64,000 nucleotides of DNA from Macrostomum lignano (taxonomy: Eukaryota), in NCBI GenBank assembly GCA_002269645.1, contig NIVC01001485.1:1-64000 (forward strand), read 5' to 3'. The notes beneath the pieces were generated by a model, which had not been told where the DNA came from, searched no databases, and saw nothing but the letters and a program-made list of their open reading frames with translations. This document shows positions 4,378 to 62,501 of this stretch, piece after piece (the stretch's first letter is position 1; each line of letters starts with the position of its first letter). A program made the translations under genes and the position numbers.

Positions 4378-4389
4378 GGTAGCCACGCA

Positions 4390-6228: not shown

Positions 6229-6230
6229 TT

Positions 6231-6620: not shown

Positions 6621-6638
6621 ACATGTGCATATTTTGTT

Positions 6639-6646
6639 TATTTATA
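6639..6646 (-). promoter_or_regulatory. TATAAATA box upstream of pX-like gene
   Basis: Exact TATAAATA 19-46 nt before candidate ATGs 6620/6611/6593. Confidence 0.55.
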
Positions 6647-6658
6647 AGCAAAGCATAA

Positions 6659-7138
6659 TTAGAGTTGCAGAATAGCAGTCACGTGGTCGTACATTTTACA
6701 CAGTTCGTCATAGTTTCGTATTCCTAGGAACACTAACCGACCATTCTTTCCGCACAGCAGGCACTTGGCCTTGCGGAATGGGGACTTTATTACAAGCCCA
6801 TTGAATACCTCACTCTCCCACTCAACCCAGCGCGAGCTCGAGTTGGCAAGGCGGAAAAAGTTTGGCTTAACATTAACTTCTGCACGATAAGTACCGGTAG
6901 TGATAACAACAGAGTTTGGTTTACATTGAGCAAAAAGACGCAGCACATCGTTGGTTGATTGGCAACCAAAAACAATGGCAGATAATGAACGTTTGAAAAA
7001 GTTTATTGTACACTTTCCGATCCTCAGGTTGTACAATGCCCGGGGTCTATGAAACGTTCTAGCGCGCGCCCAGTCCAAGTTCGGTAGGTGGTTCCACCTT
7101 GCGCAAAACACCCTGTTTACGCACACGACGTTCTGCAA
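6659..7138 (-). CDS. Divergent TATA-binding-protein (TBP)-like protein; no ATG in frame
   Basis: LQNVV start vs TBP IQNIV; WESEVFNGLVIK..CLLCGKNGRLVFLG..ELCKMYDHVTAIL aligns by eye with TBP YEPELFPGLIYR..LLIFVSGKVVLTG..EIYEAFENIYPIL; ~160 aa matches TBP core size. Confidence 0.65.
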   Translation of the reverse strand: MQNVVCVNRVFCARWNHLPNLDWARARTFHRPRALYNLRIGKCTINFFKRSLSAIVFGCQSTNDVLRLFAQCKPNSVVITTGTYRAEVNVKPNFFRLANSSSRWVEWESEVFNGLVIKSPFRKAKCLLCGKNGRLVFLGIRNYDELCKMYDHVTAILQL

Positions 7139-7739
7139 GCGGTTTTTTCGGTTGCTTTTGTTTCCGCTCAGCTCCACCAGCTCCGCGCTTGCGTCCTACC
7201 TTGATTTTTAACGGTGGAATCCAGTAGCAGCGGTCAAACGCCTGCTTGGGAGCTTCTATGAATTGCAGTTGTTGAATTTTCGGCACCGCGGTTAGAACCG
7301 AGTCGTGAATCACCGCCGTGTCTAGGGCGAACAGTACTCTATAGTAGCCCGTCTTGTTCTTGTAGTCGGTGCACAACTTGCCGCTCTTGTCGTACATTTT
7401 AAAGTCGTGAGCCAATCCGAATGCAGCGCTGTCGCAGCCAAAAGTGGGGTTGTACCCCAATAGCGCCATTCCTTGGATAGAGAGCTGGTGACACACGGAA
7501 TTGAACGCTTCTGGTATGCAGCTCTCCAAGTGCTTTTGGGAAAGAATGATGAATTCGCGGCCTTCATTGTCGGTTCTCACACCCTTGACAATCAGTACGG
7601 GCGTCGCATTGGCAAGATAGAGAGGGCCCTGTTCGTCGTACTCAATGTCGTACGTCTCGGTTCCGTTGTAGCTTGGACCTCTCGACTTGAGAGAGAATAG
7701 GTCGATCCTAACACTATTGTAGTCTTGAACGGTATCCAT
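7059..7739 (-). CDS. Hypothetical protein, possibly OB-fold ssDNA-binding protein
   Basis: ATG 7739 (MDTVQDY) with TATATAAG 44 nt upstream; beta-rich C-half GYYRVLFALD..IQQLQF recalls phage/NCLDV SSBs; assignment is weak. Confidence 0.4.
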   Translation of the reverse strand: MDTVQDYNSVRIDLFSLKSRGPSYNGTETYDIEYDEQGPLYLANATPVLIVKGVRTDNEGREFIILSQKHLESCIPEAFNSVCHQLSIQGMALLGYNPTFGCDSAAFGLAHDFKMYDKSGKLCTDYKNKTGYYRVLFALDTAVIHDSVLTAVPKIQQLQFIEAPKQAFDRCYWIPPLKIKVGRKRGAGGAERKQKQPKKPLAERRVRKQGVLRKVEPPTELGLGAR

Positions 7740-7782
7740 GTTGCTGCTGCTGCTGAGAGTGGGTCTCGCTCCTGAGCGCCTC

Positions 7783-7790
7783 CTTATATA
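7783..7790 (-). promoter_or_regulatory. TATATAAG box upstream of SSB-like gene
   Basis: 44 nt before ATG 7739. Confidence 0.5.
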
Positions 7791-7827
7791 CCCTTGGCGC
7801 GGAGGGTGGGGTGGCTGGGCGTTTTTG

Positions 7828-8343
7828 TTATAGTCCTTCTTTAACGACACTTTCCGGTGTTGGAAATCCGGAAAAAATAAACCTTTTGTTTCGATCTTCT
7901 GGTCGAGGGGTTTGAGGCGTGTCGTGAATGCAGCTGCAGTGAGGGTTGATAGTCAACTTCGCTAGCACTGGTCTACTGTGTTTAGGTCGCCAAATCCTTT
8001 GGTGTTCCGTCCACGAGGGAGCAATCGGCTGGTGATTCCGGTACCGTATTTTCTCACGATGATCCTCTTGTAATATTGGGGCAATTATCTGCTCCATTCT
8101 TTGAAGATTGGCTTTGAAATGCATCTTGTCTCTAAAGTAGTAGTCAATTCGGGCATCTGTATATTCTTGGGTGCTGTAAGGCCCTTGCCCAATTTCGTCT
8201 ACCTCGACATTAAAGGTGACTAATCGTTCGGGAATTGGTTTGCCGTGACAAATGCATAACCAGTCTGTGGACTTTTTCAGGGTCTCGTACTCTGCCCTTT
8301 CTTTGCTCGATAAAAGCGGGTAGTCTCGAGAAATCCAGCTCAT
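7828..8343 (-). CDS. Hypothetical protein (171 aa)
   Basis: ATG start overlapping upstream stop; fits the compact gene packing; no recognisable motif. Confidence 0.55.
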   Translation of the reverse strand: MSWISRDYPLLSSKERAEYETLKKSTDWLCICHGKPIPERLVTFNVEVDEIGQGPYSTQEYTDARIDYYFRDKMHFKANLQRMEQIIAPILQEDHREKIRYRNHQPIAPSWTEHQRIWRPKHSRPVLAKLTINPHCSCIHDTPQTPRPEDRNKRFIFSGFPTPESVVKEGL

Positions 8344-8693
8344 TCCTCTGACTCGTCAGATTCGTCGAGAAAGAAATAGTGGAAGAAATTGTCGACTCTA
8401 TTCTTTTCAACTGCACAAAGTATTTTGTCTGACAGGTGAAATTCGCAGTCTCCTTTTACGTACAGGCGCTTCCCGTCGATAACTTTGATAGATGCGCCGC
8501 CTCCGAGATCGTAATCTGTGCAGCTAGTGTCCAGAAATTTCATTCGATGCCATTGTGCTCGACTAAACACGGCTCCTGGACAGCTACAGTTTTGACAGTG
8601 GATGCGGAAACGCGGCTTGTTTGGGTCCCAATATCCCACTTCCAGCACTGCGTTGTCAACGTGGGTGTACACTATTTCCGATTGCCAGTACAT
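8340..8693 (-). CDS. Small protein, possibly PC4-like ssDNA-binding/coactivator fold
   Basis: PGAVFSRAQWHRMK resembles PC4 GISL..EQW..LK; acidic tail DESDESEE; TATAAATA 32 nt upstream. Confidence 0.4.
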   Translation of the reverse strand: MYWQSEIVYTHVDNAVLEVGYWDPNKPRFRIHCQNCSCPGAVFSRAQWHRMKFLDTSCTDYDLGGGASIKVIDGKRLYVKGDCEFHLSDKILCAVEKNRVDNFFHYFFLDESDESEE

Positions 8694-8724
8694 TTCGATA
8701 TTGTTGAGAAATACCAATTTTATT

Positions 8725-8732
8725 TATTTATA
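8725..8732 (-). promoter_or_regulatory. TATAAATA box upstream of PC4-like gene
   Basis: Exact TATAAATA 32 nt before ATG 8693, overlapping Fic stop. Confidence 0.55.
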
Positions 8733-9507
8733 GGCTGCCGTCTGAACAGATTTCCAACCATTCCCTCCACTGTAGAACGGTTCTCTCAATTGATAAAAGT
8801 AAATACGCCGCTAGGAGCCCCCGGTTGCTGCTGCGCGCTTCGTAAAGACAGTTGAGATATGTGTCTCTATTTGCATACGCAAATGATACGGGTTCTGGCA
8901 GAATCCGGTTGATCAACTTTGATAATAACAACCTAGCAGTTCTACCATTGCCGTCGCTAAATGGGTGTATGGTGAGAAACTTTTCTAGGAAATATGCTCC
9001 TGTCACTACTGCATCACGCAAGATTTGTGGCTCTTTTATGTCTCTAGTTAATTTTACCAGCTGCCGTTCAATATTTTCTGGGGCACTGTAATACATACTC
9101 GCGCCTGCTGGCTTGGCGTGCTTAATTCTATACGATCCTGCATTCGGGAGCAGTCCTCTACACACGCGTGTGTGAACTTGTCTAACAAACTCTGTGTCAA
9201 TTAACCCCCTCGTGTCATTGAGGTGTTTTGCCGCACTCCATAGATTGGCTGTGACCATACAGGACCCGGTTTTTATCGCTTCTTCTGCTTCCTCCCAAGT
9301 CAACGCCACCTCTCTCTCCTCAATGTTTACTTCAGTTACGAATGCCAGCCGGGCTAGATACGTGAATTCTAAGCGCTCCTTTGCGGTCAATCCCTCGATT
9401 CTTTTCCTAGTGTCTGATAACAATCTTTCAATGAGGGGTAATCTGGCGCGCACGCTCTCGTTGCTGAAATAGGGGTTATCAGTTATACCCTCTTCCATGT
9501 TCTCCAT
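8728..9507 (-). CDS. Fic-domain protein (AMPylase-type)
   Basis: Complete canonical motif HPFSDGNGRTAR; IKHAKPAG flap region; EVNIEERE..LTWEE..EAIKTG resembles the N-terminal inhibitory helix of FICD-type proteins. Confidence 0.9.
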   Translation of the reverse strand: MENMEEGITDNPYFSNESVRARLPLIERLLSDTRKRIEGLTAKERLEFTYLARLAFVTEVNIEEREVALTWEEAEEAIKTGSCMVTANLWSAAKHLNDTRGLIDTEFVRQVHTRVCRGLLPNAGSYRIKHAKPAGASMYYSAPENIERQLVKLTRDIKEPQILRDAVVTGAYFLEKFLTIHPFSDGNGRTARLLLSKLINRILPEPVSFAYANRDTYLNCLYEARSSNRGLLAAYLLLSIERTVLQWREWLEICSDGSL

Positions 9508-9569
9508 ACAGAGGGTTTTGTACACTGCTTCTATTTATGGTTGCATTAACACGTTGCTCGCGGCCTGTC

Positions 9570-10251
9570 TGTCCCTCTGCAGCCTGGGGGGGCTCTCTAT
9601 CACTCACCGCCGGTCTGTCCCTCTACCACCCCGGCCTGGGGAAGCTCTCTGTCCCTCCGTGTGACTCACACTCCCTCTCTGTCCACGCCGCGTGCTGCGA
9701 CATGCCGGGGCAGCGCAGGGTGCCTCCACGCACTCTCTGTCCCAGCACCCCGTGTCTCTTTGTACCCCACCTCATACTGCTACAGGGGTCGCCTGTTATC
9801 TGTCCCCTGCTACAGGGGGATGGCGGCTCTCCACGCACTACCCCTCCTGCTACAGGGGCTGCTCTCTGTCCCCAGCTACAGGGCTGCTCTCTGTCCCCCG
9901 CATGGGGGGCCGGTTGCTCAGTGTACAGGGCTGCGTCAGCATCGGGGGTTTCCTTCCTACACTAACCGCGTGCACACGACATTGGTGGGAGGGGCGGGAA
10001 TCCCCCCGCCGGATGTACACCCGAGGGAGGCCCATGCGCTGAAGGTACACTCGCTGGACGCCCAGCCGGCCGGATGTACACTCGCGGGAGGCCCACCCCG
10101 CTGGAGGTACACTCGCTGGACACCCACCCCGCTGGAGGTACACCCCGGGGGAGGTGGTACACCCCGAGGGAGCACCTTGCCGCGGTGCTAGAGGCCGACA
10201 TCAGCCCGACGGACCTTCGCAAAATCGAGCCATTCGGAATCCCTTAGTAGT
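9570..10251. repeat. Right terminal inverted repeat of element A
   Basis: Mirror of 1..370 up to 9931; continues through GC-rich GTACAC repeats to terminus ...CCCTTAGTAGT (10251). Confidence 0.85.
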
Positions 10252-44051: not shown

Positions 44052-45709
44052 TCCCTCCACACGTAGATGAAAAAAAAGAAAAAAACAGCAACTAAAAAGA
44101 AACAAAAACAGGAGAAAAGAAAATACTTCCCAGCACCACGACAACAATAACAGAAACCAAAAAATCGAACACCACCCAAAGCCGTAAACAAAAAAAAGTC
44201 GGTCAGGGAAAAAAACAAAAAAACGTTACTACGTAGGACGCAGATTGTTGTCGATTTTCAGATGTTTTGACGCAAAAAACGCAAATTATACTACTATCCG
44301 AAAATGAAGTAAGTAGTATACAAAAACGCTATCCTAAGCGTGATTCAATATGTAGTTGTAATAATCCATGTGCTCATATTAATTCCATGTACATTAATCC
44401 CTATCTATCTCAAATTGTACATTAATTCCATGTACATTAATCCCTATCCCAAATTGTCTATCCCCAATTCTATATGTACATGTGCATTAATCCACATGTA
44501 CAGTGTCATCCCCAGACGGCCCGCGCCCACCAAGATTACAACTCGAAACCCTACTACATGTACAACCTCATCCAAATGAGTCAACTAATTGTATAGCTCA
44601 CATCGTAATGTATATTTCCAATGTACATTCTCAGAGACAGATTTGAATAATACGGGTCGGAGTCTATATGTACATCGATAGCCTCTATACTCATATCCGC
44701 TACATACCCCAAAAATTAGGTATGTACATTTTTACCCTCGGAGACTACAGGTTTGAATATGCTGAATAATTTATTCGAAATCACTTATAAAATACACATA
44801 CTTTCATATAGAGGCGGGCCTGTACAAACTCTCGCCAAGCAATGGGGTGGAGGTTGCGTCATCCAAGTCTCTCCCAAGTCTGTCCCCCCAAATACAAGAC
44901 TGTGTTGAAGCAGTGCTTTATATTTCTATTGACAGTGGGTATGATACAAGAAGCTTCGTCGCGCTTTAATTACAGTAAACCATCCCCTCGAAGCTCCTAT
45001 ACTGAACGCTGAATCACCCTTTAACTCGGACCATAGTCAAATTCAACCCTGTTCGAAAACAGCCACCCCTCCGATGTTCACCAGACTCGTCTTCACAGCG
45101 CAGACCCCATAGCAAAATCGGGCTAAATTTTAACACTCGCCCCTGTTCTCTCTGTCCCCCTTCTAAATGCCAAGGAATTTCGACCCTCTCTCCATTTTCA
45201 GTGTACAGACAGATCTTTCCACAGCACCGACCCTATATTAAACTTCATTCAGCAAAACCCCTCTCTTCTCCGATTACGTCATCCATGCCGCCCCAGATAG
45301 CAAGAAACCAACTTTTAATGCACATATCAACCCCGCGAATCTGAGCAAATCCGAGTCCGCCAACCTCTACCTGCATTGACAAACCCCAGCTGCATTTGTA
45401 AATGTACACAGCCTATGAATCAGTGTCTCCACCGCATGCAATTCTGATTTACTTGATTCTAAACTTTGTAAATTGTATAAGTCACCCTTGCGTTATACTA
45501 GAAGTAGTGAAGTCCACATATTTAAATACGTGAGGCTATTCAATTCTGCCTCTCCGCCTCCCCTACCTTCTCACTTCAAGCTTTCAGACTTGGTCTTTGA
45601 GACGGTCGGTTTAATCTGTTAGAAGCAGGAATGAATCATGCACTGACCTCTCCATACAAAGTAAAGTTGGAATTTCAAACAAGAAATTAGGTTATTTTAA
45701 AAGCTAAAT

Positions 45710-46570
45710 GACTAGAAATGCACATTTTTTTTTCATTAAAATACAATTTTTCACAGTTTTTATGCATTTTTACGTTAAAATGCAGACTTTATTGATCAAA
45801 ATCAGTAGTTTCATCACTAGAAACCATACTTTCAACAGCTAATTTGTCCAAATATCGGTTTCAACTTGACCTTAGACAGCTTTTAAGCAGGAATGAACCC
45901 CACACAAACATCCACAAGCCAGCCCAAAATCAGCCAAAGACATGGCTATTGAAGCCTAAATTGCTAGAAATGAGCATTTTTTATAAGAAAATACAATTTT
46001 TCACAGTTTTTATGCATTTTTACGTTAAAATGCAGACTTTATTGATCAAAATCAGTAGTTTCATCACTAGAAACCATACTTTCAACAGCTAATTTGTCTA
46101 AATATCGCTTTCAACTTGACCTTAGACAGCTTTTAAGCAGGAATGAACCCCACACAAACATCCACAAGCCAGCCCAAAATCAGCCAAAGACATGGCTATT
46201 GAAGCCTAAATTGCTAGAAATGAGCATTTTTCATAAGAAAATACAATTTTCACAGTTTTTATGCATTTTTACGTTAAAATGCAGACTTTATTGATCAAAA
46301 TCAGTAGTTTCATCACTAGAAACCATACTTTCAACAGCTAATTTGTCCAAATATCGCTTTCAACTTGACCTTAGACAGCTTTTAAGCAGGAATGAACCCC
46401 ACACAAACATCCACAAGCCAGCCCAAAATCAGCCAAAGACATGGCTATTGAAGCCTAAATTGCTAGAAATGAGCATTTTTTATAAGAAAATACAATTTTT
46501 CACAGTTTTTATGCATTTTTACGTTAAAATGCAGACTTTATTGATCAAAATCAGTAGGTTTCATCACTAA
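45710..46570. repeat. 250-bp tandem repeat in left arm of C (3 full copies plus partial)
   Basis: Unit starts at 45844, 46094, 46343. Confidence 0.92.
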
Positions 46571-48396
46571 AAACCACAATTTTAACACAAAATTATCACA
46601 AATGCTACTTCTGGAACTCTGAGACAGCTTTGAGCAGGAATTATATTCGCACACGGATTACCCGAGCCAGTCCAATTTCCACTAAAACCATGGTTTTTTT
46701 AAAGCTAATTCTTAGAATTTCTCATTCTTTCGTTTAATAAAGGCCAATTTTCACAGTTTTATTATTTTCTAACGTTAAAATGCGAAATGCGAATTGATCA
46801 AACTTAGTAGTTTCATCCCAAAAACCATAATTTCAACCGCTAATTTGTCCAAATGCTGATTTCAAAGTTGGCAAGAGACAGCTTTCGAGCAGGAATGAGT
46901 CACACACTGATCTCCATATGCACACCCGGCCCAAGTTGGAATTCCACCCAAGACATTTTCATTGAAAGCTAAATTACTAGAAATTGCACATTTTCGTTTT
47001 AAAAAGGTCAATTTTTCACAGTTTTTACTCTTTTTTACGTTAAAATGCTGACTTTATTGAACAAAATTAATCACTTCATCAGCAGAAACCATAATTTTTA
47101 CAACTTAATCGTCAAAAATGCTGTTTCATCATTCAAATGTATGTATTTGGTACATGTAATACCCCTCAAGAAGTCAGGGAAGGGATTATTCTTGAATTGG
47201 GTTAAAACGTACAGTTTGCTATAAACCTAGCTATAATAATTTTAACATATACAGTCGGCGAAGCGGCCCGTTGATTTCGATTGACATTTAAACTGTCCCT
47301 CCCAGACCTCTCTCTCTCTCCTTCTGCACCCACCGAGAAAAGTGACTCATGCGGCAAACAGCTGGACAGGTTTAGTATATTACTGAATTGGCAAAACAGC
47401 CAACACCCAATGGTCATATTAGACTCGTCTTCACAGCACAGACCCATGTAGAACAGAACCACTCGTCCCTGTCTCTCTGACCTTACCATTTCTAACTGTC
47501 AAGGAATTCCGACCCCTACCTCTCCAATTTCAGTGTATAAACAGATATCTTCACAGCACGGACCCATATATTGAGCCTCCTCCAACCAAAACCCTATCTT
47601 GATTACGTCATCCACCTCCCCATAGAAGCAGTTAGCAAGAAAAAAAATTTCGATGCACATATAACTACGTAATGCGTATATTGTTGTCGATTTTCAGATG
47701 TTTTGACGCAAAAAACGCAAATTATACTACTATCTGAAAAATGAAGTAAGTAGTATACAAAAACGCTATCCTAAGCGTGATGTGGCAATATGTAGTTGTA
47801 ATAATCCATGTGCTCATATTAATTCCATGTACATTAATCCCTATCTATCTCAAATTGTACATTAATTCCATGTACATTAATCCCTATCCCAAATTGTCTA
47901 TCCCCAATTCTATATGTACATGTGCATTAATCTACAGTGTCATCCCCAGCGCGCGCGCACCAACATTACATGTACAATGCTACATGTACACAGAGGCGAG
48001 AATTACTAATCTCATCTACTACCAAATGAGTCAACTAACCGTGTAGCGTACATCATGTATAAGTATTTACAATGAAGATATATTTACATTAAACCAGTAG
48101 CATATTACAGGAAATAATTTATGTACAGCATTACCAGCAAATAGAATATACAGAAAATTTTACATTGTTTTTCATTAATTTTCTTTTCATAAATGATTTT
48201 AAACAAGTTTGACACGCAAAATATTTACAATAGATTTTTACATTGGCAATTTCGCTGCATACAATACAAAAATGCTTTATGTACATTTGTATAGTAGTAT
48301 GTAACTCTTCATTAATTTAACATGCAAAATATGTACAACAATAAATAGATTTTACTCAGTCAAATTTAACAAGATATTTATTAAGCAAGGGCCACA

Positions 48397-51300
48397 TTAT
48401 TTATAACCATAAGGCCTGCTGCAGGCCCCGTACACGCGCTTCGTCAGGACGCGCTGAAACGTCTTGTCCATATTGATTGTGTGTATGGTACAAGACGCCT
48501 TGTCGCGCCTAAACTGAAGCTGCGGCAGCTGCAGGGAGCCGCCGTGTAGTAGGGCACTGCGCAATTCATCGCTGCGCTCCCGAATCTCCGGAGTCAGGCG
48601 GATGCCCTTGCACTTCAGGACCTGACTCCGGGCACCGGCCGCATCCTCGACAATGTAAGTGTAGAGCTTGGGCCCTCCACTTACAAAGTCGGTCATCCGG
48701 CTGCCTGCGGGCACCTCATCGGTCCACATTCCGAGGCTCGTGCCATGGGGCGGCTCCCATTGGCCCTCGGAATGCCGGTAAACGACCCTGTGTGGGAGAG
48801 AAAACGAGATAATTGCTAACTATTTACATGTAATCAATTCTAAAATAATTTTCCCAATGCAATACTTACGAGTCAGTGTCGCAGTAAATGGCCCGTTCGC
48901 CGAGCCCCTCCAATGCCTCATACAGGCGCAGCCGGGCCTGCGTGGTCGTAAAGACTCCGATTGGCACATTAGAGTACCGGAACGGCCGCTGATTAAAATA
49001 GCGGTGCCGGTACTCTAGCAGCATAAACTCGCTGCCAATCGGTTCGCAGGCCTTGACTTTGAGGTTGGGGTCGGTCAGCCGGGCGAGCCAGTCCTCGTAG
49101 CTGGATACAATTTCTGTCGATGTCAGGTCATCACGCTGACAAAATTTGCCCCAGAGCCTGTGTGTTGTGAAAAGAAGTGCTACTGTTAGTAGAAGAAGAA
49201 AATCATTTAAAATACAAAAATTTATGAATACTTACGAATTCAAAAAGATTTTCGCTACAAAGCGAAGTCCTGGGTTGGGCTCGACCTTGTCCAGCGTGAC
49301 GCCCTCCTTGGCGTAAAAATCGGCAATGTAGGCGGCCTTGTCTTCATCCGACATGCCGGGGGAACCGCTCGACTCAGCCTTCAGCTTGAGAAAGGTGCTG
49401 ACATAGTCACTGAACAGACCGGTCCGCTTCTCTGTCCAGTAGGCCAGCGCGTGCACCGCCTGCAGCCGGTAGCCCAACTGGAAGGCCTTCCGCAGCTCCG
49501 GCGTTGCCCAGGTACCAGTCAGTGCCCGCTGCTGGTCAGAGTGGTCGCAGCACTCGCCGCACTGCTGCTCCATACAGGTGCGGCAAAGCCCAAAAAAGAG
49601 CTTCTTTTGCACCCTGTAGGGCAGCAGCGGAATGTGCAAATCTGACGGCGGCAGCACTGTCACCTTGGCAATGCCAAAGTAGCTAGCCAGCGCGTCAGAA
49701 TCGAGCACTTGCGGCGTCGGATGTTGCACCGGGTGGCCAATCGGGTATGGGTCTTTCGACTGCACCGTCGGGTACAGAGAGACCTGCCAGTTGAAATAAA
49801 GCATTATTTTTTTTTCATAAACTGTATTTTTTGCAAAATATTCTACTATATTAGTAGTATCGCTACTCACCACATCCCGATATTTGAGAGTCTCAGTCTC
49901 GCTGGCCACAGCATGCGGGATAAAGCACTCTACGCGGCCGCCGTAGAGCGCATCCTCCATCTTGAGCGGAGCGCGCAGATGTGCAGTTGCGGCGATAAAG
50001 TCGGCCTGCGACGCCAATACAGTGTCGTACTCATGCTCCCAAATGACTCGAACACTGTAATTGTGCCGCTCCAACTCGCGAGTGAACCACTCAGTCTCGT
50101 GGCGAATATGGCTCAGAGGCTGCCGTTTGAGCGGGTGAACGACATCCTGATCGGGCATACACTGCTCGCAGCCATGGTAGAAACAGCCATGAAACTGCAA
50201 AACAGTGTTGCTGGCCTCATCGAAGCCGTCCACCTTGCGGCCGAGAATGACAGCCTCGCCGCCAGTCGAGTCGCAGGTTCGCAGCCGCCCGCCAAATTCG
50301 GTGGCATTCAAATAGGCCAGCCACTTGCGCGCCTTGAACGACTGCTGGTCGGCCTGCCGGGCAATCACGCCGACCGAGTTGGGCTCCATAAACCGGGTGG
50401 TGAAAACGGCCATTGCCAAACTGGCAATCGTATTGGCCTGTACAAATGGTTCCAGGCCGTCGCAAATTTCACCAATTATTGCCCTGTACTTGATGCAGCC
50501 CTCGCGAAGCAGGACTGTGTCGCTCAAACAATAATCGAGATACTCCCGATTAAAGTTGAACAACTCGCCCTGTCGCGAGGCTAGCCAAGCACAGATTGAG
50601 TCATAGTCCTTGTTTGCTTTGCCGCCATAATATTCAATAGCCGGGTAGGGGCCAACGTAGTTCCAATTAGCCGGCTTGTTAAACTCGTGGGGAAAGGTCC
50701 CCTTGGCCAGCTTTGTGTCAGCGAGCCCCAGCGCTTTGGGGAATTGCGCAAGCGGGATTGGTATGAAATTTAACGAATCTTTGAATACCAATTTATCCAC
50801 CGTCATGCTCATTAGCCGGCTGCCCTGGAACAGTACTTGTGGCCGCTTCTTGGCCAGGCCGTTGAGTAGAGCGCCAAGCAGTAGGAACGAATCGTAGCCT
50901 GATGCGTTGTGCGCTACAACAATGGCGCCGCCTCGGAAAGCTGTGCTTAGCCAGGTGAAAAACGCATTCAGCGAGGCCGGGCCCACAGCCACAAAATCGG
51001 CCATTTGGCAGGCGCAGTCTGAGTGGCTGACGCAATTGGAGAATTCCTCCCCCAGATCGCGGCCAGTCAGACAATTGGCAGTGCTATGCAGGCCATTGCA
51101 GAGGCGGCAAGTCTCGCGCGGAAACGCCCGGCCGGAGCAGGTCTCGCAGCACGTGACGGCAGTCACCAGGTGCACGTGATGCTGCTTCTCCTCGTCCGTG
51201 TATGTTTCCGTATCGTAGAACACGTACGGCATAGTCGAAGCTTTCACTTTGGGAGCCTTGACGAAGCACAAATGCGAGCCGGCCTCGTCGTACTGTTTAC

Positions 51301-53979
51301 ACAGTGGGCATTTGATGTGGCCGCACTTGTGCTCCGGCTCCCTTTGCCCAACTTTCATCTCCTCCAAATATCCGCATTTGGGGCAGACTCGGACAGAGTC
51401 GCAGCGAGACCTGCCGGCCCGGTTTTTCCGGCGGTGGTTCTCAAAGCACTGCTGATTGTAGCACTTGAGGCCACAATCAGGGCAGCGCTTGTAGTCGCAC
51501 CGCAGGCTCTTGCAATTGGCGCCGGGCACTTTACACTGAGGGCAGGTGTTGGCGCACTTGTGCCCTGCAGAGTTGCAATCATACGGCTGCTGGCAGCGGT
51601 CGCAATAGTAACGGGCTCCGAAAAATGGCGGCACCTTGCAAACAGCGTTAAAGTGTTCGCCAATTAGGTGCAAATTCAGCACTTCGCAGCCGGGCAGGGC
51701 GTACACACACGTGTTGCCTTCATCAGCACTGTATACCCGGACGCCGAAATCCCGGCCAGGCGACTGGGCGTTCAGGACCGCGAGCAGTTGGGGGAGCACG
51801 TCAACCCCGAAAGGCCCGGCCTGTGCAATGGTTGATAAAGACTAAAACATTTGTATATTAATAAAAATGCAAATTAAAATGTGCAAGAACATTTTTACTC
51901 ACCGAATACAATTTGGCTGCAATTTGTAACTCCCCAGTAAGCTTCTTCTGCATTGGGGAGTCAGCCTTGATGGTCCGCCAAGTCCGCTTAGAAATTGTCT
52001 TGGCCTCCAGGTCGGCAAAGGCCTTGGCGACAATCAGCGCCCGAATGAGGCAACGCTTGTCGCTGTTGGCGATGACAGCATAATTATAGCCCATAGCATG
52101 GCGTGCCTGGATGTGGCGCTCCGCAGCATCTAAGCTGCCGCAGCCGCCCCGCGGGACCCAGGCCTTGAGTAAAAACAATTTAAAGTTGTTGCCCAAGACG
52201 CTGGAGTCCGACTGCAGAACCTTGTTGATATGTTTAAATATCAGCTCTGCAGTGAAGCGGCTGCGGCGGACGGGCGGGACATTGATGGCGAGCATCATAT
52301 TGTCCGCCGTCAGCTTAGATGCGACGAAATCGTTGACATTCAGGTCGGCGCAGAGTGCCGAAATTACTTTCGCGAATGTGTCGCGAATATCGGTGAGTGC
52401 TGTGAAAGACACTTCATACTCGTAGCCCTTGGCTCTAAATTTTGGCAGGGCTTTCGCCCCGCCAAGACGCGCAATGAAGCCTGAAAAAAATGGAGGGTTT
52501 GAAATTAGAATTGCGAGAGGCGGCGGCAGGTTTATGACTCATAAAATCAACTCCTTACCATCGCCTTCGACAGTGTCGGGCTGGGGCGGGGGTTGAAATT
52601 GAGCCAAATCTGCAATAAAAATGCGCATGGTGACTAAAATTCTGACCGCTTGGAATTTTACAACTGTCAAAAATTTTTGATTGATTGCCTGCAGCAGCAG
52701 CAATTTTATCGCCCCACCCCAAGCAACAAAAATCGGTGAGTTGTAAAAACCCCCAACTCGGCACGTTCCGACACGTAGCAACAAAAGAAATGTGGGGTTG
52801 ATTGACCCCCGCTTCGAATTTTAGGCTGTCAAAAATGTTTGATTGATGACCCTGATAACACAGATCCTGCCGCAGCAGCCATTGTAAAATTTAAGAAAAC
52901 CCCTATCAGCACGTGCCTCCATTGTGCCTCCTTGACACCTAGCAACAATACCGCGCGGCCGCTTTTGGATTTTAAAGCTGTCTGATTAATAACCCTCACT
53001 GTAGCAGCCAAGTTTTATTGCTGCCAAAACCCCATACAATTGCAGCGATGATTACATCATCATGCCCAAAAATCGGGGGTTGATTTTATCACTGCGCCGC
53101 TAGAATACCTGCCGCCGTGGTGATTACATCATCATGCTGAGCCCAAAAATCGGGGGTTGATTTTTATCACTGCCGCCTGCCCGCCCCCCGCTGAGTCACG
53201 CGCGCGCTGCAGGATTGCTGTTTTTGCTTCTCTAGTCATATAACCCCTGAAATTTTATGACTATCCCCTACAGGCATTATCTGGCTATACTGCTGCTGCT
53301 GCTGATATTCTCAAAAACTCTGTTATTTCAACAGGTCTGAATTTGAGAAATCCAACTTCAACATCTATGTCAAGAGGAAATTCCGAAATTTTAACCAAAA
53401 ATGAATGCTAAAGATGAAAAGCAGTGGTTTTCAAAGAAAGCCCATATTTCAACAAGCGAAAAGTTTGCAAATCACACTAATGCTAAAGCTGAAAAGCGCA
53501 GTTATACAACCCTATTTTTCTAATTTTAGATTTTGCAAATGCTAAAGATGAAAATAATTGAGGCTAATGTATAAAAAGCAGTTTTTCAGAGAGTCCTATT
53601 ATTTCAATAAGCTGAATTTACAGTTTGGAAAGCAACTCTGAATGCAAAGGGTGAAAACCAGTTTTACAGTGGGGCCTCCTATTATTTCAATAAGCCTTAT
53701 TTTGAGTTTGCGAAAGCCAAATGAATGCCAAAGATGAAAAAGCAGTTTTTACAGAGAACAGCCCTATATTATTCAATAATCCCGAATTTGGAGTTTCGTA
53801 AAAAGATAAAGATGAAAAAGAAATTTTTACACAGACTTGCAAGACTCACCTAGCTGTCGTCCCCTCTTTGCGGGCGGAGGCTGATGCTGCTGCTGTGGTT
53901 GCTGCTGCTGCCTGGAGGGGCCAGCCTGCCCCCACAAGGCTGAAATGGCGGCTTCAGCGGCTGGGCGTTTTGATGCCAT
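48397..53979 (-). CDS. Protein-primed family B DNA polymerase, 7 exons (53979-53850, 52609-52559, 52480-51903, 51820-49871, 49783-49236, 49157-48870, 48787-48397), 1311 aa predicted
   Basis: All introns GT-AG with consistent phase; Exo I FYDTET, Exo II AHNASGYD, Exo III YCLSD; motifs YRDV/VSLYP, KIFLNS/LWGKF, YCDTDS/V; VSR-like VDG..LQFHGCFYHGC insert; N-terminal DKRCLIRAL..EHF; exon 1 (Kozak GCCACAATGG) less certain. Confidence 0.92.
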
Positions 53980-54080
53980 TGTGGCTGATGCTACTGCTGC
54001 TGTTGTTGCTGATGCTGCGGTTGTGGCTTCTGCTGCTGCTGGCTGCTTCTGCGGATGCGGCTGCAGCAGCTCTCATCCGC

Positions 54081-54088
54081 TTTATATA
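54081..54088 (-). promoter_or_regulatory. TATATAAA box upstream of pPolB exon 1
   Basis: About 100 nt before ATG 53979. Confidence 0.5.
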
Positions 54089-57000
54089 CCCCGCAAGAGG
54101 GAGGGTGGGGTAGGGGCACGAGAATTGTGCGTGATTTTCTTTCCCGGGTCTATATTCTCCAGATTAGTGTACGATTGTACACTCCATTCCGCATTTGATA
54201 TAGAAAGTTGGGGTCAAAATTACCCCGCCGATTCTTTTCTCATGCGGTATTTTATTGGATCTGAGCGGAGCCATCCAACCGGCACTCTCGCAGGAGTGAA
54301 ATGGCGACTTCGTCAGAGTACAGTCTCTCAAAGAAGAAGACCGCTTCCTCTTGCAACATATCTTTTCGACTTGAATCGGATAGGAAACGGTGTTTATCCA
54401 GAAAACAATTGGCAGAAGCTGACCAATAATAGCTAAATACAGATGAAAAATATGAAAGATAACTTCTGTGGTTTTTAAGGCCCGCCTGTCTCTGCGAGAA
54501 AATGGATGTCAAAAATCGCTGTATCAATTTAATGACCTGGGGGAAATGGGGCTTGTGTGCAAAGCATCTGATTGACAGAGGCTCAGGGAAGAGTAAGAGT
54601 CGATGAAAAGCTCTTGCATTCTTCTAAAATATCCATCAAAGAGTAATAAAGGTGACACCCCTGTCTCGAGCCAAATAAGAGAGACGGAGTTTTCTACTTC
54701 TGTTTACGTAATGTTTGGGGATGCTTCCCTGTCACCTGGGGTTATAGGGGCAGAGAGTCAGTTATGGCATGTAAGCGGTGGTAAAGAATTGCCTTGGTGA
54801 GGCTGGGGTAGGTGTTGTTCTCTCCATATTGGCGAACATTAATAGTCCTGGGTTGAATTTTGAATATGGCTAGAATGTATAGCGGAGAATCGTTGAATTG
54901 AAGGGAGATTCAACATGCAAAGTATTCAACAAAACCGATTCAGTGCATCTAAAAGAGGCAGTGCGAGCTTCAGAACTGAGAATAGCGTTTAAGATAGCAT
55001 CAATGGCATGATTTAATAATCGAATATTGAAAACTTTAAGTTAATAGCAGATTGTGTTTTTAGCGCCAATTTTTATAGTGTCTATAGAATACTTCCCCAG
55101 CTTCTTGGGCAATATACATGCCTATTTGAATGATGAAACAGCATTTGTGATGATTTATTAGCTAAAATTATGATTTCTATTGATAAAATGACAGATTTCG
55201 ATCCATAGCTCGTAAAGTAAGCATTTTAACGTTAAAAATCGAAAAAAATGAGGAAAAATCGTGTTTTTCTTGAAACAGTTTGCATTTCTAATAAATTTTT
55301 ACCATTCATTAACCATTTCTTGGGCTGGGCTGGCTTGTGGACTTCCGTGTGGGACTCATTCCTGCTTCGAAGCCGTATTAAGTAAAGTTGAAACGGCATT
55401 TGGGCATTAGCTGTTGAAATGATGGTTCCCAGTGATGAAATTACTGATTTTGATCAACAAAGTCTAACTTTTAATGTTAAAATTAAAGAAACAGGAGAAA
55501 ATTCGCCTTTTATGAAATGACGGAATTCCAACTTGGAGAGGTCAGTGGGTATTTCATTCCTGCTTCGAGAGATCGAACTTTCATAGAGTCTGAAAGCTTG
55601 AAGTGAGAGGGCAGGGGAAGCGATAGAATTGGCATAGCAGCACGTTTTTGGGCGATTGGAATTCACTACTTCTAGTATACCACATTGGCTGTAGTGCCGA
55701 AGTATTTCTTTGACAAAACACATAAATGGAACTCTGTCTCGGAATTGAATGCAGAGGAGACACTGATTCATAGGCTGTGTACATTGACAGATGCAGGGTA
55801 TTGGGTCGATGCAGGTGGAGGTTGACTCGGATTTGCTCAGATTCGTGGAGTTGATGTGTGCATTAAAAGTTAGTTTCTTTCTTGCTAACTGGGGGCGGCG
55901 TGGATGACGTAATTGGATAAGAGGGGTTTTGCTGAATGAGGTTTAATATAGGGTCCGTGCTGTGAAAAGATCTGTCTGTACACTGAAAATGGAGAGAGGG
56001 TCGAAATTCCTTGGCATTTAGAAGGGTGACAGAGAGAACAGGGGCGAGTGGTTCTATTCGATTTGCTAAATAGGGGTCTGTTGACCATTGGAGGGTGGCT
56101 GTTTTCGAACAGTCTTGGAGTTGATTTTGAATATGGCCGGAGATAAAGGGTGATTCAATATGCAACATAATCGATTCCATAGTGTACACCTGCGTCTGTG
56201 GCATATTTTGCGGATTAAAGCGCAACAAGGGGTCTTGTATCATCTGCACTGTCAATAGATATATTGTATAAAACATTGCTTTCACAGTCTTGAGAGGCCA
56301 ACTAAATAAATATATATACGTATCAAAGCTCGGCCGGCTTTTTGTGTAAATATATATACGTCTTTTGAAAACTTATTTGGGAGAGGCGTTGGGAATGACG
56401 TAATTGTCCCGGAGTGGTGACGAGGGTTGAATTCCAGATGGATGAAGTATGGAAGGAGTGGAAATAACAGTGTGGACAGCGATTTTTGGCTGACTCATGT
56501 CTCATCCGCCAATTTTGGGGATGGGCGGCAGTTTCTGCGTACACTGTTTGCTTTTTGAGGGCCAGCAGAAAATGAAGAGTTAATTCTTGGATGTGCGGCC
56601 ACTTTGCAAATTTTGGATATAATATGGGTGGGTGGGTGCTTCTGCATGCTCTCTGTTTCAACTATTAAAAAAAATGATCTCCACTATTCCAATGTAATCT
56701 TTTTAATAGGAATCTAGACTTGTAAACTCTACTAATGGTAGTATAGCGTAATCAGTTACATTTGGTTTTGAGTAATTGACATATAAATATGCATATGTGA
56801 CGCGTTTTGTAAAACTTGGGTGTTGGCTCATTTAGATGGAATTGTACAGCGCTAATTCTAACCTCTGCGCATTTTACATGTACTGTACATGTAGTAGGGT
56901 TTCGAGTTGTAATTTTGGTGCGCGCGCGTGGGCCGTCTGTGGATGAGACTGTACATGTAGTAGGGTTTCCGATTTGTAATTTTGGTGCGCGCGGGCCGTC

Positions 57001-57630
57001 TGGGGAAGACACTGTAGATTAATGCACATGTACATATAGAATTGGGGATAGACAATTTGGGATAGGGATTAATGTACATGGAATTAATGTACAATTTGAG
57101 ATAGATAGGGATTAATGTACATGGTATTAATATGAGCACATGGATTATTACAACTACATATTGCCACATCACGCTTAGGATAGCGTTTTTGTATACTACT
57201 TACTTCATTTTTCAGATAGTAGTATAATTTGCGTTTTTTGCGTCAAAACATCTGAAAATCGACAACAATATACGCATTACGTAGTCATATATGAACAATG
57301 CGAACCAAGCAAATCCGCGCGTCTACCAAAGCCAACCCTACCCTGCGTGTTGTAATTGCATTTGTCAATGTACACACCCTATGAATCAGTGTCTCCTTCT
57401 TTGGAACACACGAAGGCATTAGTCAGAAAGTTTGGATGCAATTAAAAACTCTCTCGATGCTTTGCGTATAAACGAGTAATCGATTGAATCAATTGTACAC
57501 TTGACACATTTAATTACGTGCTGCCATGCAACGGAAAGACAGGATAATGGGGTGGGTGGTCACGCAGCCTCATTCTCTCTTTCCTACTGATTTTTCATTA
57601 TCTATCAATCTCAGCTCTTTCCGGGGCAAA

Positions 57631-58113
57631 ACATTTTGCAAAACATAGACTAAACTTTCAAATCATTCGTTTACACAACCAACTGTCTATATTAATGGTG
57701 GGGTTATTATTACTTTACAGAAAAACGCATGTCCTGTGTTACGACACTGCCTAGCAACCGTATAATTTTTGCAGGTCAAGGAGCATTAATACATGAACTA
57801 ACACTCCTATTTTGCATTCATTGAGAGGCGGAGGCAGCGGGCAGAGGGGGGGCCGGACCGTGACTGTGCGCAGCACAGTCCCTGTCTCTACTGCCGCCTC
57901 CGCCCGCTGCCGCCGCCTCTCAATGAATGCAAAATAGGAGTGTTAGTTCATGTATTAATGCTCCTTGACCTGCAAAAATTATACGGTTGCTAGGCAGTGT
58001 CGTAACACAGGACATGCGTTTTTCTGTAAAGTAATAATAACCCCACCATTAATATAGACAGTTGGTTGTGTAAACGAATGATTTGAAAGTTTAGTCTATG
58101 TTTTGCAAAATGT
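57631..58113. repeat. Perfect 201-bp-arm palindrome in the centre of element C
   Basis: 57631..57831 is the reverse complement of 57913..58113; GC-rich 81-nt loop with GACTGTGC-GCA-GCACAGTC hairpin. Confidence 0.92.
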
Positions 58114-59889
58114 CTCTATGAAAACTCATCTTCCTACTGACAGTAGAGTTTGCAAAAATCAGTTCTTGGAAGAATGCGACATTTTCGTGAAAATATTTAA
58201 ACTGCTATATTGGGCCTATGACAGATTTTTATTGAGAAACTATCGTCATTTCCACAGAGAAAGATAAACATGTGAAGCTTTCGTGAAGATTACATCTTCA
58301 TACTACGGGTATCAAATTTTCCTGTATTTGACTGAACGTACGTGCATTTAGTCATAGTCGGGGAGTGCTTCAACCATTTATCAGGTTTAAATCGGCTGCC
58401 GCTTGCATATGTACATCACATGTAAATGAACATGTGGTAAATCTGATGAGGAACTATGCACACATGCGCGAGTTGCCCCGGAAAGAGCTGAGATTGATAG
58501 ATAATGAAAAATCAGTAGGAAAGAGAGAATGAGGCTGCGTGACCACCCACCCCATTATCCTGTCTTTCCGTTGCATGGCAGCACGTAATTAAATGTGTCA
58601 AGTGTACAATTGATTCAATCGATTACTCGTTTATACGCAAAGCATCGAGAGAGTTTTTAATTGCATCCAAACTTTCTGACTAATGCCTTCGTGTGTTCCA
58701 AAGAAGGAGACACTGATTCATAGGGTGTGTACATTGACAAATGCAATTACAACACGCAGGGTAGGGTTGGCTTTGGTAGACGCGCGGATTTGCTTGGTTC
58801 GCATTGTTCATATATGTGCATCGAAATTTTTTTTCTTGCTAACTGCTTCTATGGGGAGGTGGATGACGTAATCAAGATAGGGTTTTGGTTGGAGGAGGCT
58901 CAATATATGGGTCCGTGCTGTGAAGATATCTGTTTATACACTGAAATTGGAGAGGTAGGGGTCGGAATTCCTTGACAGTTAGAAATGGTAAGGTCAGAGA
59001 GACAGGGACGAGTGGTTCTGTTCTACATGGGTCTGTGCTGTGAAGACGAGTCTAATATGACCATTGGGTGTTGGCTGTTTTGCCAATTCAGTAATATACT
59101 AAACCTGTCCAGCTGTTTGCCTCATGAGTCACTTTTCTCGGTGGGTGCAGAAGGAGAGAGAGAGAGGTCTGGGAGGGACAGTTTAAATGTCAATCGAAAT
59201 CAACGGGCCGCTTCGCCGACTGTATATGTTAAAATTATTATAGCTAGGTTTATAGCAAACTGTACGTTTTAACCCAATTCAAGAATAATCCCTTCCCTGA
59301 CTTCTTGAGGGGTATTACATGTACCAAATACATACATTTGAATGATGAAACAGCATTTTTGACGATTAAGTTGTAAAAATTATGGTTTCTGCTGATGAAG
59401 TGATTAATTTTGTTCAATAAAGTCAGCATTTTAACGTAAAAAGAGTAAAAACTGTGAAAAATTGACCTTTTTAAAACGAAAATGTGCAATTTCTAGTAAT
59501 TTAGCTTTCAATGAAAATGTCTTGGGTGGAATTCCAACTTGGGCCGGGGTGTGCATATGGAGATCAGTGTGTGACTCATTCCTGCTCGAAAGCTGTCTCT
59601 TGCCAACTTTGAAATCAGCATTTGGACAAATTAGCGGTTGAAATTATGGTTTTTGGGATGAAACTACTAAGTTTGATCAATTCGCATTTCGCATTTTAAC
59701 GTTAGAAAATAATAAAACTGTGAAAATTGGCCTTTATTAAACGAAAGAATGAGAAATTCTAAGAATTAGCTTTAAAAAAACCATGGTTTTAGTGGAAATT
59801 GGACTGGCTCGGGTAATCCGTGTGCGAATATAATTCCTGCTCAAAGCTGTCTCAGAGTTCCAGAAGTAGCATTTGTGATAATTTTGTGT

Positions 59890-60990
59890 TAAAATTGTGG
59901 TTTTTAGTGATGAAACCTACTGATTTTGATCAATAAAGTCTGCATTTTAACGTAAAAATGCATAAAAACTGTGAAAAATTGTATTTTCTTATAAAAAATG
60001 CTCATTTCTAGCAATTTAGGCTTCAATAGCCATGTCTTTGGCTGATTTTGGGCTGGCTTGTGGATGTTTGTGTGGGGTTCATTCCTGCTTAAAAGCTGTC
60101 TAAGGTCAAGTTGAAAGCGATATTTGGACAAATTAGCTGTTGAAAGTATGGTTTCTAGTGATGAAACTACTGATTTTGATCAATAAAGTCTGCATTTTAA
60201 CGTAAAAATGCATAAAAACTGTGAAAAATTGTATTTTCTTATAAAAAATGCTCATTTCTAGCAATTTAGGCTTCAATAGCCATGTCTTTGGCTGATTTTG
60301 GGCTGGCTTGTGGATGTTTGTGTGGGGTTCATTCCTGCTTAAAAGCTGTCTAAGGTCAAGTTGAAAGCGATATTTGGACAAATTAGCTGTTGAAAGTATG
60401 GTTTCTAGTGATGAAACTACTGATTTTGATCAATAAAGTCTGCATTTTAACGTAAAAATGCATAAAAACTGTGAAAAATTGTATTTTCTTATGAAAAATG
60501 CTCATTTCTAGCAATTTAGGCTTCAATAGCCATGTCTTTGGCTGATTTTGGGCTGGCTTGTGGATGTTTGTGTGGGGTTCATTCCTGCTTAAAAGCTGTC
60601 TAAGGTCAAGTTGAAAGCGATATTTAGACAAATTAGCTGTTGAAAGTATGGTTTCTAGTGATGAAACTACTGATTTTGATCAATAAAGTCTGCATTTTAA
60701 CGTAAAAATGCATAAAAACTGTGAAAAATTGTATTTTCTTATGAAAAATGCTCATTTCTAGCAATTTAGGCTTCAATAGCCATGTCTTTGGCTGATTTTG
60801 GGCTGGCTTGTGGATGTTTGTGTGGGGTTCATTCCTGCTTAAAAGCTGTCTAAGGTCAAGTTGAAAGCGATATTTAGACAAATTAGCTGTTGAAAGTATG
60901 GTTTCTAGTGATGAAACTACTGATTTTGATCAATAAAGTCTGCATTTTAACGTAAAAATGCATAAAAACTGTGAAAAATTGTATTTTAAT
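59890..60990. repeat. 250-bp tandem repeat in right arm of C (4 full copies plus partial)
   Basis: Minus-strand unit starts at 60131, 60381, 60631, 60881. Confidence 0.92.
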
Positions 60991-62501
60991 GAAAAAAAAT
61001 GTGCATTTCTAGTCATTTAGCTTTTAAAATAACCTAATTTCTTGTTTGAAATTCCAACTTTACTTTGTATGGAGAGGTCAGTGCATGATTCATTCCTGCT
61101 TCTAACAGATTAAACCGACCGTCTCAAAGACCAAGTCTGAAAGCTTGAAGTGAGAAGGTAGGGGAGGCGGAGAGGCAGAATTGAATAGCCTCACGTATTT
61201 AAATATGTGGACTTCACTACTTCTAGTATAACGCAAGGGTGACTTATACAATTTACAAAGTTTAGAATCAAGTAAATCAGAATTGCATGCGGTGGAGACA
61301 CTGATTCATAGGCTGTGTACATTTACAAATGCAGCTGGGGTTTGTCAATGCAGGTAGAGGTTGGCGGACTCGGATTTGCTCAGATTCGCGGGGTTGATAT
61401 GTGCATTAAAAGTTGGTTTCTTGCTATCTGGGGCGGCATGGATGACGTAATCGGAGAAGAGAGGGGTTTTGCTGAATGAAGTTTAATATAGGGTCGGTGC
61501 TGTGGAAAGATCTGTCTGTACACTGAAAATGGAGAGAGGGTCGAAATTCCTTGGCATTTAGAAGGGGGACAGAGAGAACAGGGGCGAGTGTTAAAATTTA
61601 GCCCGATTTTGCTATGGGGTCTGCGCTGTGAAGACGAGTCTGGTGAACATCGGAGGGGTGGCTGTTTTCGAACAGGGTTGAATTTGACTATGGTCCGAGT
61701 TAAAGGGTGATTCAGCGTTCAGTATAGGAGCTTCGAGGGGATGGTTTACTGTAATTAAAGCGCGACGAAGCTTCTTGTATCATACCCACTGTCAATAGAA
61801 ATATAAAGCACTGCTTCAACACAGTCTTGTATTTGGGGGGACAGACTTGGGAGAGACTTGGATGACGCAACCTCCACCCCATTGCTTGGCGAGAGTTTGT
61901 ACAGGCCCGCCTCTATATGAAAGTATGTGTATTTTATAAGTGATTTCGAATAAATTATTCAGCATATTCAAACCTGTAGTCTCCGAGGGTAAAAATGTAC
62001 ATACCTAATTTTTGGGGTATGTAGCGGATATGAGTATAGAGGCTATCGATGTACATATAGACTCCGACCCGTATTATTCAAATCTGTCTCTGAGAATGTA
62101 CATTGGAAATATACATTACGATGTGAGCTATACAATTAGTTGACTCATTTGGATGAGGTTGTACATGTAGTAGGGTTTCGAGTTGTAATCTTGGTGGGCG
62201 CGGGCCGTCTGGGGATGACACTGTACATGTGGATTAATGCACATGTACATATAGAATTGGGGATAGACAATTTGGGATAGGGATTAATGTACATGGAATT
62301 AATGTACAATTTGAGATAGATAGGGATTAATGTACATGGAATTAATATGAGCATATGGATTATTACAACTACATATTGAATCACGCTTAGGATAGCGTTT
62401 TTGTATACTACTTACTTCATTTTCGGATAGTAGTATAATTTGCGTTTTTTGCGTCAAAACATCTGAAAATCGACAACAATCTGCGTCCTACGTAGTAACG
62501 T

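Follow-up and report, generated by a model that had tools for sequence, protein, structure and literature searches.

We found that the window, by which we mean the whole 64,000-nucleotide stretch of Macrostomum lignano DNA analysed here, contains members of two classes of element, one carrying a polymerase and the other carrying capsid and integrase genes, that share their terminal 32 bases in matched pairs and integrate separately, each with a 6-bp TSD. We consider it probable that the two classes together form a two-segment Maverick. The polymerase gene, a pPolB that is expressed and under selection, is split by five introns, three of which lie inside catalytic motifs A, B, and C. These introns are spliceosomal, still functional, and older than the split between the polymerase subfamilies pol1 and pol2. 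Their positions may be due to homing nucleases aimed at the catalytic motifs, a reading to which we give about an even chance.

The polymerase element lies toward the right of the window, nested within a second element:

47664..57285, minus strand: polymerase-only Maverick segment, subfamily pol1 (9622 bp, ends ACTACGTA.., TIRs about 320–350 bp)
47658..47663 and 57286–57291, plus strand: left and right copies of the 6-bp TSD CATATA
44228..62496, no strand assigned: near-palindrome that carries no genes, has pol1-type ends and a separate 6-bp TSD (AACGTT), and measures 8641 bp once the insert is subtracted

Of the core genes, the 9622-bp element (47664–57285) has pPolB and no other; no integrase, capsid, ATPase, or protease gene was detected in it. 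A joint matching the empty site (47646–57286) was present in all four sequencing runs examined. The segment was inserted into the gene-less near-palindromic element, which is itself multi-copy in the genome G000; an assembly artefact as the source of this palindromic outer element was rejected because it occurs in multiple copies and has its own TSD.

The other class is represented at the opposite end of the window by a segment of subfamily capA:

1..10251, minus strand: capsid/integrase segment, subfamily capA, polymerase-less, with its left end beyond the contig start
530–1048, in the capA segment: ATPase-like gene
1114–1551, in the capA segment: protease-like gene (weak PF02902 match, E=0.06)
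1548–2834, in the capA segment: double-jelly-roll MCP
3249–4389, in the capA segment: minor-capsid-like gene
4390–5468, in the capA segment: rve integrase with chromo-like tail

This segment further holds TBP-like and Fic genes, and contains no ORF longer than 443 aa. The MCP is double-jelly-roll-like by its Atlas features (score 0.98), with PF21738 matching 14–30% of members. Two of the genes had no library match, and we take them to be ATPase-like and minor-capsid-like from motifs and gene context. For most ORFs of the capsid segment, no name came from PHROGs, Pfam, or PDB, and a 226-aa ORF had no usable Atlas match.

The division of genes seen in the window was repeated across the genome. 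We fetched the flanks of 20 polymerase and 19 capsid matches, these being best matches rather than a random draw, and added the window to give 21 polymerase stretches. Integrase, MCP, ATPase, and protease genes were found in none of the 21 polymerase stretches, and a polymerase in none of the 19 capsid/integrase stretches. The polymerase class carries genes for replication alone: pPolB and, in some copies, a PC4-like gene or a dUTPase. All 16 polymerase copies with both ends (8.7–10.8 kb) were flanked by a 6-bp TSD, two of these lying in simple repeats, as were 14 of the 16 capsid copies with both ends (9.6–11.9 kb, and one rearranged copy of 14.4 kb). The 71 polymerase matches and 62 MCP loci (at least 67% identity) had only two contigs in common, where they were 48 kb and 467 kb apart, though these genome searches score best candidates only and may have missed a rare one-piece copy. 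As a control, we looked at six more distant MCP loci of G000: one had a PF03175-matching ORF of 1478 aa in cis, three had an ORF of 855–1272 aa there (assigned by position only), one had broken ORFs, and one was masked.

The ends of the two classes match pairwise over their first 32 bases, pol1 with capB and pol2 with capA. Ends of pol1 and capB begin ACTACGTA or, rarely, ACTACATA, and those of pol2 and capA begin ACTACTAA or ACTACTAT; the window's capA end, ACTACTAAG.., accordingly matches the sister subfamily pol2 and not the window's own pol1 copy. Bases 9–27 vary between copies, and the nearest capsid-type end was that of the proposed partner for 10 of 10 pol1 and 11 of 12 pol2 ends, with two of these identical over 32 nt. 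A 174-nt internal block is also shared by pol1 and capB. Bases 24–50 are shared by pol2 and capB as well, so the pairing is not sealed.

The same elements could instead be independent deletion derivatives that do not cooperate, being either dead or moved by the genome's canonical Mavericks or by a one-piece parent that escaped detection. Gene-less derivatives with the same ends do spread, the genome searches give lower bounds, and accessory genes have been lost from most pol1 copies, a PC4-like gene being present in 9 of 9 pol2 but only 2 of 12 pol1 copies, one also with a dUTPase. However, the split is identical in two subfamily pairs whose polymerases differ by a dS of about 2, the gene sets are complementary and the termini match as in a segmented virus, and both classes have kept intact frames, including ten identical MCP proteins. 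A one-piece parent was found in none of the 40 stretches, and the one canonical element with resolved ends terminates in AGTAGTAG rather than ACTAC.., making independent derivatives an improbable explanation.

Polymerases of the Polinton/adenovirus type prime at terminal bases and copy any molecule with those ends, and it is the rve integrase that makes the 6-bp TSD. In a two-segment Maverick, the polymerase would thus use protein priming at the common ends to copy both segments, and the integration of both, and perhaps their packaging, would fall to the integrase and capsid proteins of the partner. Because the TSD is the work of an rve integrase, polymerase copies must presumably borrow one, and the shared variable end blocks suggest that both classes replicate together and exchange ends. 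The similar sizes of the segments might even mean that they are packaged separately, though this is a guess.

Together, the two classes have what is shared by animal Mavericks/Polintons (polintoviruses, adintoviruses): a PF03175 polymerase, rve integrase, double-jelly-roll MCP, ATPase-like and protease-like genes, TIRs, and a 6-bp TSD. A Polinton is defined as encoding both polymerase and integrase (PMC5499653), and its capsid module accompanies the polymerase; the window element has no rve integrase in the same element as its polymerase, and the double-jelly-roll MCP, ATPase, and protease occur only on the partner class. Taken alone, the window element is not a canonical Polinton, but the pol and cap pair works like one. 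Intact vertebrate Mavericks are described as one piece with intronless ORFs (PMC8097293), unlike the flatworm elements, where polymerase and integrase/capsid genes lie on separate 9–11 kb elements with shared ends and the core polymerase ORF has five introns. Also comparable are bidnaviruses and the Drosophila Vesanto virus, which are segmented, have a Polinton-related pPolB, and carry common termini on their segments (PMC8502044, PMC8363768); the flatworm pairs resemble them in having segments with common ends that would be copied by pPolB. These viruses are described as ssDNA and parvovirus-like, whereas the flatworm partner segment encodes a double-jelly-roll capsid, protease, and rve integrase, and each flatworm segment, unlike theirs, integrates with a 6-bp TSD. 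A two-segment Polinton and a report of motif introns in pPolB were both absent from the literature searched, which did not extend to Repbase, subscription papers, or bioRxiv supplements, and neither spliced pPolB nor segments are mentioned in the available portions of PMC10748475 and 10.64898/2026.10.13.758929.

The polymerase gene itself is read from the minus strand and is made up as follows:

54081..54088, minus strand: putative TATA-like box, ~100 nt upstream of the start codon, predicted from the sequence
53850..53979, minus strand: probable coding exon 1 (43 codons plus 1 nt, MASKRP..)
52481..53849, minus strand: intron 1 (1369 nt, phase 1, unconserved site)
51903..52480, minus strand: exon 2, N-terminal region
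51821..51902, minus strand: intron 2 (82 nt, phase 0, unconserved site)
49871..51820, minus strand: exon 3 (1950 nt), with a Cys-rich region, exonuclease, VSR-like insertion, and first half of motif A; PF03175 match
49784..49870, minus strand: intron A, in motif A (87 nt, phase 0, splitting YRDV/VSLYP)
49236..49783, minus strand: exon 4, second half of motif A to first half of motif B
49158..49235, minus strand: intron B, in motif B (78 nt, phase 2, in the Ser codon of FLNS)
48870..49157, minus strand: exon 5, second half of motif B to YCDTD
48788..48869, minus strand: intron C, in motif C (82 nt, phase 2, in the Ser codon of YCDTDS)
48397..48787, minus strand: exon 6, with the stop codon

The six exons total 1294 codons, the minus-strand ORF matches PF03175 (E=1e-27), and motifs A, B, and C align with those of 74 homologs. 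UniRef lists identical proteins under Macrostomum lignano. We take the insertion in exon 3 to be VSR-like from its motif, with no Pfam match. The three introns that the initial annotation placed inside motifs A, B, and C (49784–49870, 49158–49235, and 48788–48869) lie on the minus strand at exactly those coordinates, and the 1950-nt exon (49871–51820) is open and without interruption as it had described, though two upstream introns (51821–51902 and 52481–53849) had been overlooked. Introns A, B, and C have GT..AG ends and a GC content of 0.26–0.30 compared to 0.57–0.60 in the adjoining exons; the donors read GTRAGT, the acceptors are pyrimidine-rich, and removal restores the frame, as in U2-type spliceosomal introns, with intron B also holding a stop and a CTAAC branch-like site. 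All four short introns were recovered unaided by a spliced aligner given only a profile of the 74 intron-free homologs. Exon 1 is followed by a GTGAGT donor in all six pol1 copies listed, the acceptor of intron 1 is present in 19 of the 21 polymerase stretches across both subfamilies, and intron 2 occupies the same site in both, at 81–83 nt versus 140–307 nt. Exon 2 may encode a terminal-protein/vOTU region, an assignment made after PMC11161782 that has no Pfam match. In G000, the frames of other pPolB families are open over 900–1478 aa, and apparent introns in the canonical pPolBs of this genome were discarded as artefacts of a group-specific profile that misaligns there (scores 130–166).

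Four of 24 listed sequencing runs were examined as contigs, which cannot measure retention. The RNA label of three of these runs is a guess, as it is for all ten listed runs that bear it, none being recorded as RNA. Contigs of the three putative-RNA runs, from three studies, contained exact skips of 82 nt (intron C) and 87 nt (intron A); the fourth run, of unrecorded type, contained neither joint. Among the 15 of 30 joints listed for the contigs of the four runs, none was junction B, the splice of exon 1 across intron 1, or the joint of intron 2, and one contig spans exon 5 edge to edge. Exon 3 has 71 matches in G000, falling into pol1 (about 95%) and pol2 (about 65%), and the four short introns lie at identical sites and phases in both, while identity between their intron sequences has decayed to 25–55%. 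Between the subfamilies dN/dS is 0.14–0.16, and exon values were 0.06–0.22 in 14 of 14 comparisons, with the same range of 0.06–0.22 within pol1. Of the 101 places in G000 that matched exon 5, not one was part of an open frame exceeding 280 aa, which means that we saw no copy lacking introns.

One way to account for introns in these positions is that they are kept so that polymerase activity requires regulated (e.g., germline-only) splicing, with retention of intron A giving an inactive full-length protein. An active enzyme is impossible from unspliced RNA, intron A is in frame and stop-free in the window copy as first annotated and open in 13 of 22 pol1 copies, and one putative-RNA run also has contigs covering intron A. 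These contigs may be DNA, however, and each of the three putative-RNA runs contained spliced joints. None of the 9 pol2 copies has an open intron A, and among pol1 copies this intron differs by single-base indels; the 29-aa read-through insert proposed in the initial annotation is thus not a kept feature. The broader idea of splicing dependence holds insofar as expression needs splicing, but the same gating would come from a stop-bearing intron anywhere before motif C, meaning a switch does not explain the positions, and we regard it as very unlikely to be the reason for them.

The placement of the introns was instead associated with conservation. When 11-residue windows of an alignment to the 74 intron-free homologs were ranked, sites A, B, and C came 9th, 1st, and 48th of 1296 (top 0.7%, 0.1%, and 3.7%), compared to 932nd (top 72%) for intron 2 (51821–51902) and 1225th (top 95%) for intron 1 (52481–53849). 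The earlier claim that this placement is unlikely by chance is borne out by permutation, with P=7.6e-5 for the best three of five random sites (P=1e-4 and 8e-4 at other window sizes), and it also holds in unrelated pPolBs. Chance, a splice-context preference, or a burst of introners could each be put forward as the cause: the gene has only five introns, the mean over all of them is borderline (P=0.03–0.10), and introners are reported from dinoflagellate Polinton-like elements (10.1101/2025.03.18.643946). With the bases around the site matched, however, P is still 0.0025 when the four short introns of the window are taken and 1e-4 for the motif clusters of the metagenomic loci described below, and the four short introns, the only ones compared, are unalike, with six of six pairs no better than shuffles (P 0.19–0.85). 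Introner origin and splice-context bias were rejected on these grounds, and this group of explanations is largely refuted; we consider it extremely improbable.

For an independent test, we scanned metagenomes, finding 399 relatives and keeping 80 pPolB loci. As the initial annotation had suggested comparing, introns occur in related pPolBs and mostly in conserved motifs: 17 of the 80 loci have introns, at 17 distinct sites, 14 of which fall in the top 8% of windows, bearing in mind that introns are easier to detect where alignment is good, as in conserved regions, and that the loci were fetched with two conserved-word patterns. Introns were accepted if they were frame-breaking or stop-bearing, had GC at least 0.05 below that of the gene and good splice scores, and were no longer than 300 nt; in-frame, GC-normal candidates were thereby discarded, and by design long gene-bearing introns cannot appear. 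The sites lie in exonuclease II, the VSR-like FH-GC motif, ALYGG, motifs A, B, and C, LG-ELTDE, and GGPK. Motif B has five of them, each at a different base in a stretch of four codons, and one shares its codon and phase with intron B of the window gene; in the VSR-like FH-GC motif three sites in three phases lie within one or two codons. Mean conservation at the metagenomic sites was 0.67 versus 0.47, a difference reached in 0 of 200000 draws; taking one site per motif gave P=1e-4, and the same after flanking-base matching. Leaving out motifs A, B, and C weakens the enrichment to P=0.023, but it persists in other conserved windows, which is what loss bias alone would predict.

In a FastTree analysis of palm regions (90 rows, leaving out P0087 and 9 of the 80 metagenomic loci, including L157), whose deep nodes are weakly supported, polymerases with introns occur at about seven positions among relatives that have none. 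Several database ORFs end at motif B or begin at motif A, including two close relatives of the exon. At three loci (L090, L116, and L164) where the alignment stops near a motif and the contig continues, we found no splice acceptor at the stop point, and a viral contig set yielded 220 pattern matches with no relative confirmed. Four metagenomic Polintons (L091, L121, L157, and L162) likewise have motif introns, one at the same motif B codon and phase, but unlike the window element their integrase and ATPase genes adjoin the polymerase, with an MCP as well in L091 and L121. Because these Polintons are in one piece, the split and the introns are separate traits. A VSR insertion has also been described in the pPolB2 of marine nematodes and molluscs (PMC10748475).

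Inteins and group I introns prefer the most conserved positions, as do the pPolB motif introns, while spliceosomal introns are reported to have no such preference (PMC2814812). Mirusviruses are known to have spliceosomal introns that home by means of HNH, GIY-YIG, and VSR-like nucleases (PMC12768974), and a spliceosomal intron occurs at an intein's codon in PRP8 (PMC3749507). These precedents lead us to favour homing, and under this reading the catalytic motifs would be the targets of homing nucleases during mixed infection. A motif intron may have spread as a homing intron and later lost its nuclease gene, or alternatively may have become fixed since it broke the target while leaving the protein unchanged. 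Once established, it could be removed only by precise loss and so would be retained. The suggestion that conserved motifs had been targeted in the past, as by inteins and mobile introns, stands as the favoured reading, but no intron seen holds a nuclease gene and Rfam identified no self-splicing intron.

No nuclease ORF was found in any intron seen, the motif introns of the G000 copies and the 17 metagenomic loci being 66–158 nt long. The mirusvirus shintrons are likewise GT-AG introns in core genes of nuclear DNA viruses, but carry a nuclease gene and occur mostly in morphogenesis genes (PMC12768974), whereas the pPolB motif introns are short, ORF-less, and in a polymerase. Set beside shintrons, the pPolB motif introns would be relics at most. 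A group I or II intron or an intein was rejected as their identity: Rfam gave no matches in 44000–62700, there are no intein residues, and introns B and C break the frame or hold stops. Unlike inteins and group I introns, the pPolB motif introns are not self-splicing. Group I introns have been reported in protist PLVs (PMC12220804). Among the proteins examined we found no intein-sized gap between intact motifs, a weak test because an intein inside a motif would escape the search pattern. Two of the five introns in the window gene lie at unconserved sites and nearby motif B sites could reflect intron sliding, both counterpoints to homing.

A bias in loss could also concentrate introns in motifs without any homing, if introns arrived at random, were removed imprecisely for compactness, and survived only where motifs are intolerant of indels. 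The sites in other pPolBs do span many conserved windows, with the residual enrichment outside motifs A, B, and C noted above, nuclease ORFs are absent, and the constraint of precise removal is itself named as a factor in PMC2814812. However, 5 of the 17 sites fall in four motif B codons and 3 in one or two VSR codons, which is sharper than general conservation predicts, the two introns at unconserved sites have both been retained from before pol1 and pol2 diverged, and host spliceosomal introns show no such bias (PMC2814812). Loss bias thus seems possible but unlikely, and homing remains the reading we prefer.

The account that combines two segments with homing is limited by its homing step, and we hold it to be evenly balanced between true and false. 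In its fullest form, which we put forward tentatively and at somewhat less than even confidence, these elements would be an integrating animal polintovirus in two segments, one of ~10 kb for replication and another of ~10 kb for integration and capsid, perhaps packaged separately, that share and exchange a variable 32-base origin and exist as two matched families. Its introns would be relics of, or shields against, homing nucleases at the catalytic motifs of pPolB, acquired repeatedly and independently across Polinton lineages.

The interest of these elements rests on their two-segment organisation and on the recurrent targeting of motifs. Polintons are screened for as intronless ORFs and defined by polymerase and integrase in one element; a split and spliced family passes neither filter, so such elements are probably undercounted. 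If true, a two-segment Maverick would stand naturally between Polintons in one piece and segmented viruses with a pPolB, of which bidnaviruses are an example. The host, Macrostomum lignano, is a laboratory animal in which particles and mobility can be sought. The recurrence of spliceosomal introns in catalytic motifs contradicts the published indifference of such introns to site conservation, and may provide a testable route of intron gain via homing.

The limits of two environmental ORFs, P0028 and P0029, suggest from sequence that introns in motifs A and B of the pPolB gene may also be present in relatives beyond the searched M. lignano genome. Both are 60–69% identical to exon 4, which lies between these two introns, and both start at motif A and stop at FLNS. 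One metagenomic locus, the one-piece Polinton L162, is an exception to the concentration of pPolB introns in conserved motifs, as its sole confident pPolB intron is N-terminal and at an unconserved site.

Some polymerase segments, though not all, carry PC4-like and dUTPase genes opposite to pPolB, and a 336-aa ORF likewise occurs in pol2; pol1 copies of the window type have none of the three, yet are still ~9.5 kb long. Among the capsid/integrase segments, the Fic gene and a 127-aa ORF were present in capA and not found in capB, and integrase open frames were longer in other copies than in the window copy.

Features of polymerase and capsid segments
L042:2895-3698, L042:5576-6034, L044:2299-2829, L044:2948-3955, opposite to pPolB: PC4-like and dUTPase genes, plus the 336-aa unknown ORF of pol2
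Window 3249-4389: minor-capsid-like gene, two overlapping frames in the window copy
Window 4390-5528: integrase, two overlapping frames in the window copy
Window 6659-9534: TBP-like ORF, three unnamed ORFs and Fic-domain gene of the capsid segment
Window 47664-47695 and 10220-10251: example ends, first 32 bases
Window 44228-62496: palindromic element without genes, pol1-type ends, 8641 bp

An adhesion GPCR (laminin G, GAIN, GPS, 7tm_2) at window 19139-24880 is a single 1913-aa ORF without introns.

Over the first 32 bases of pol1, pol2, capA and capB termini, bases 1–8 and 28–32 are maintained and bases 9–27 vary block-wise between copies (46 distinct sequences among 70 ends), with left and right ends of a single copy mostly in agreement. 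Large internal inverted duplications were observed in copies L069-L070 (G000:C1313), L021 and L022, as expected from template switching in strand-displacement replication.

The gene-less palindromic element is close in size to the polymerase and capsid segments, and its central part occurs at ~40 places in the genome among the matches scored, mostly at 94–100%. Toward the segment system, this element behaves like a satellite.
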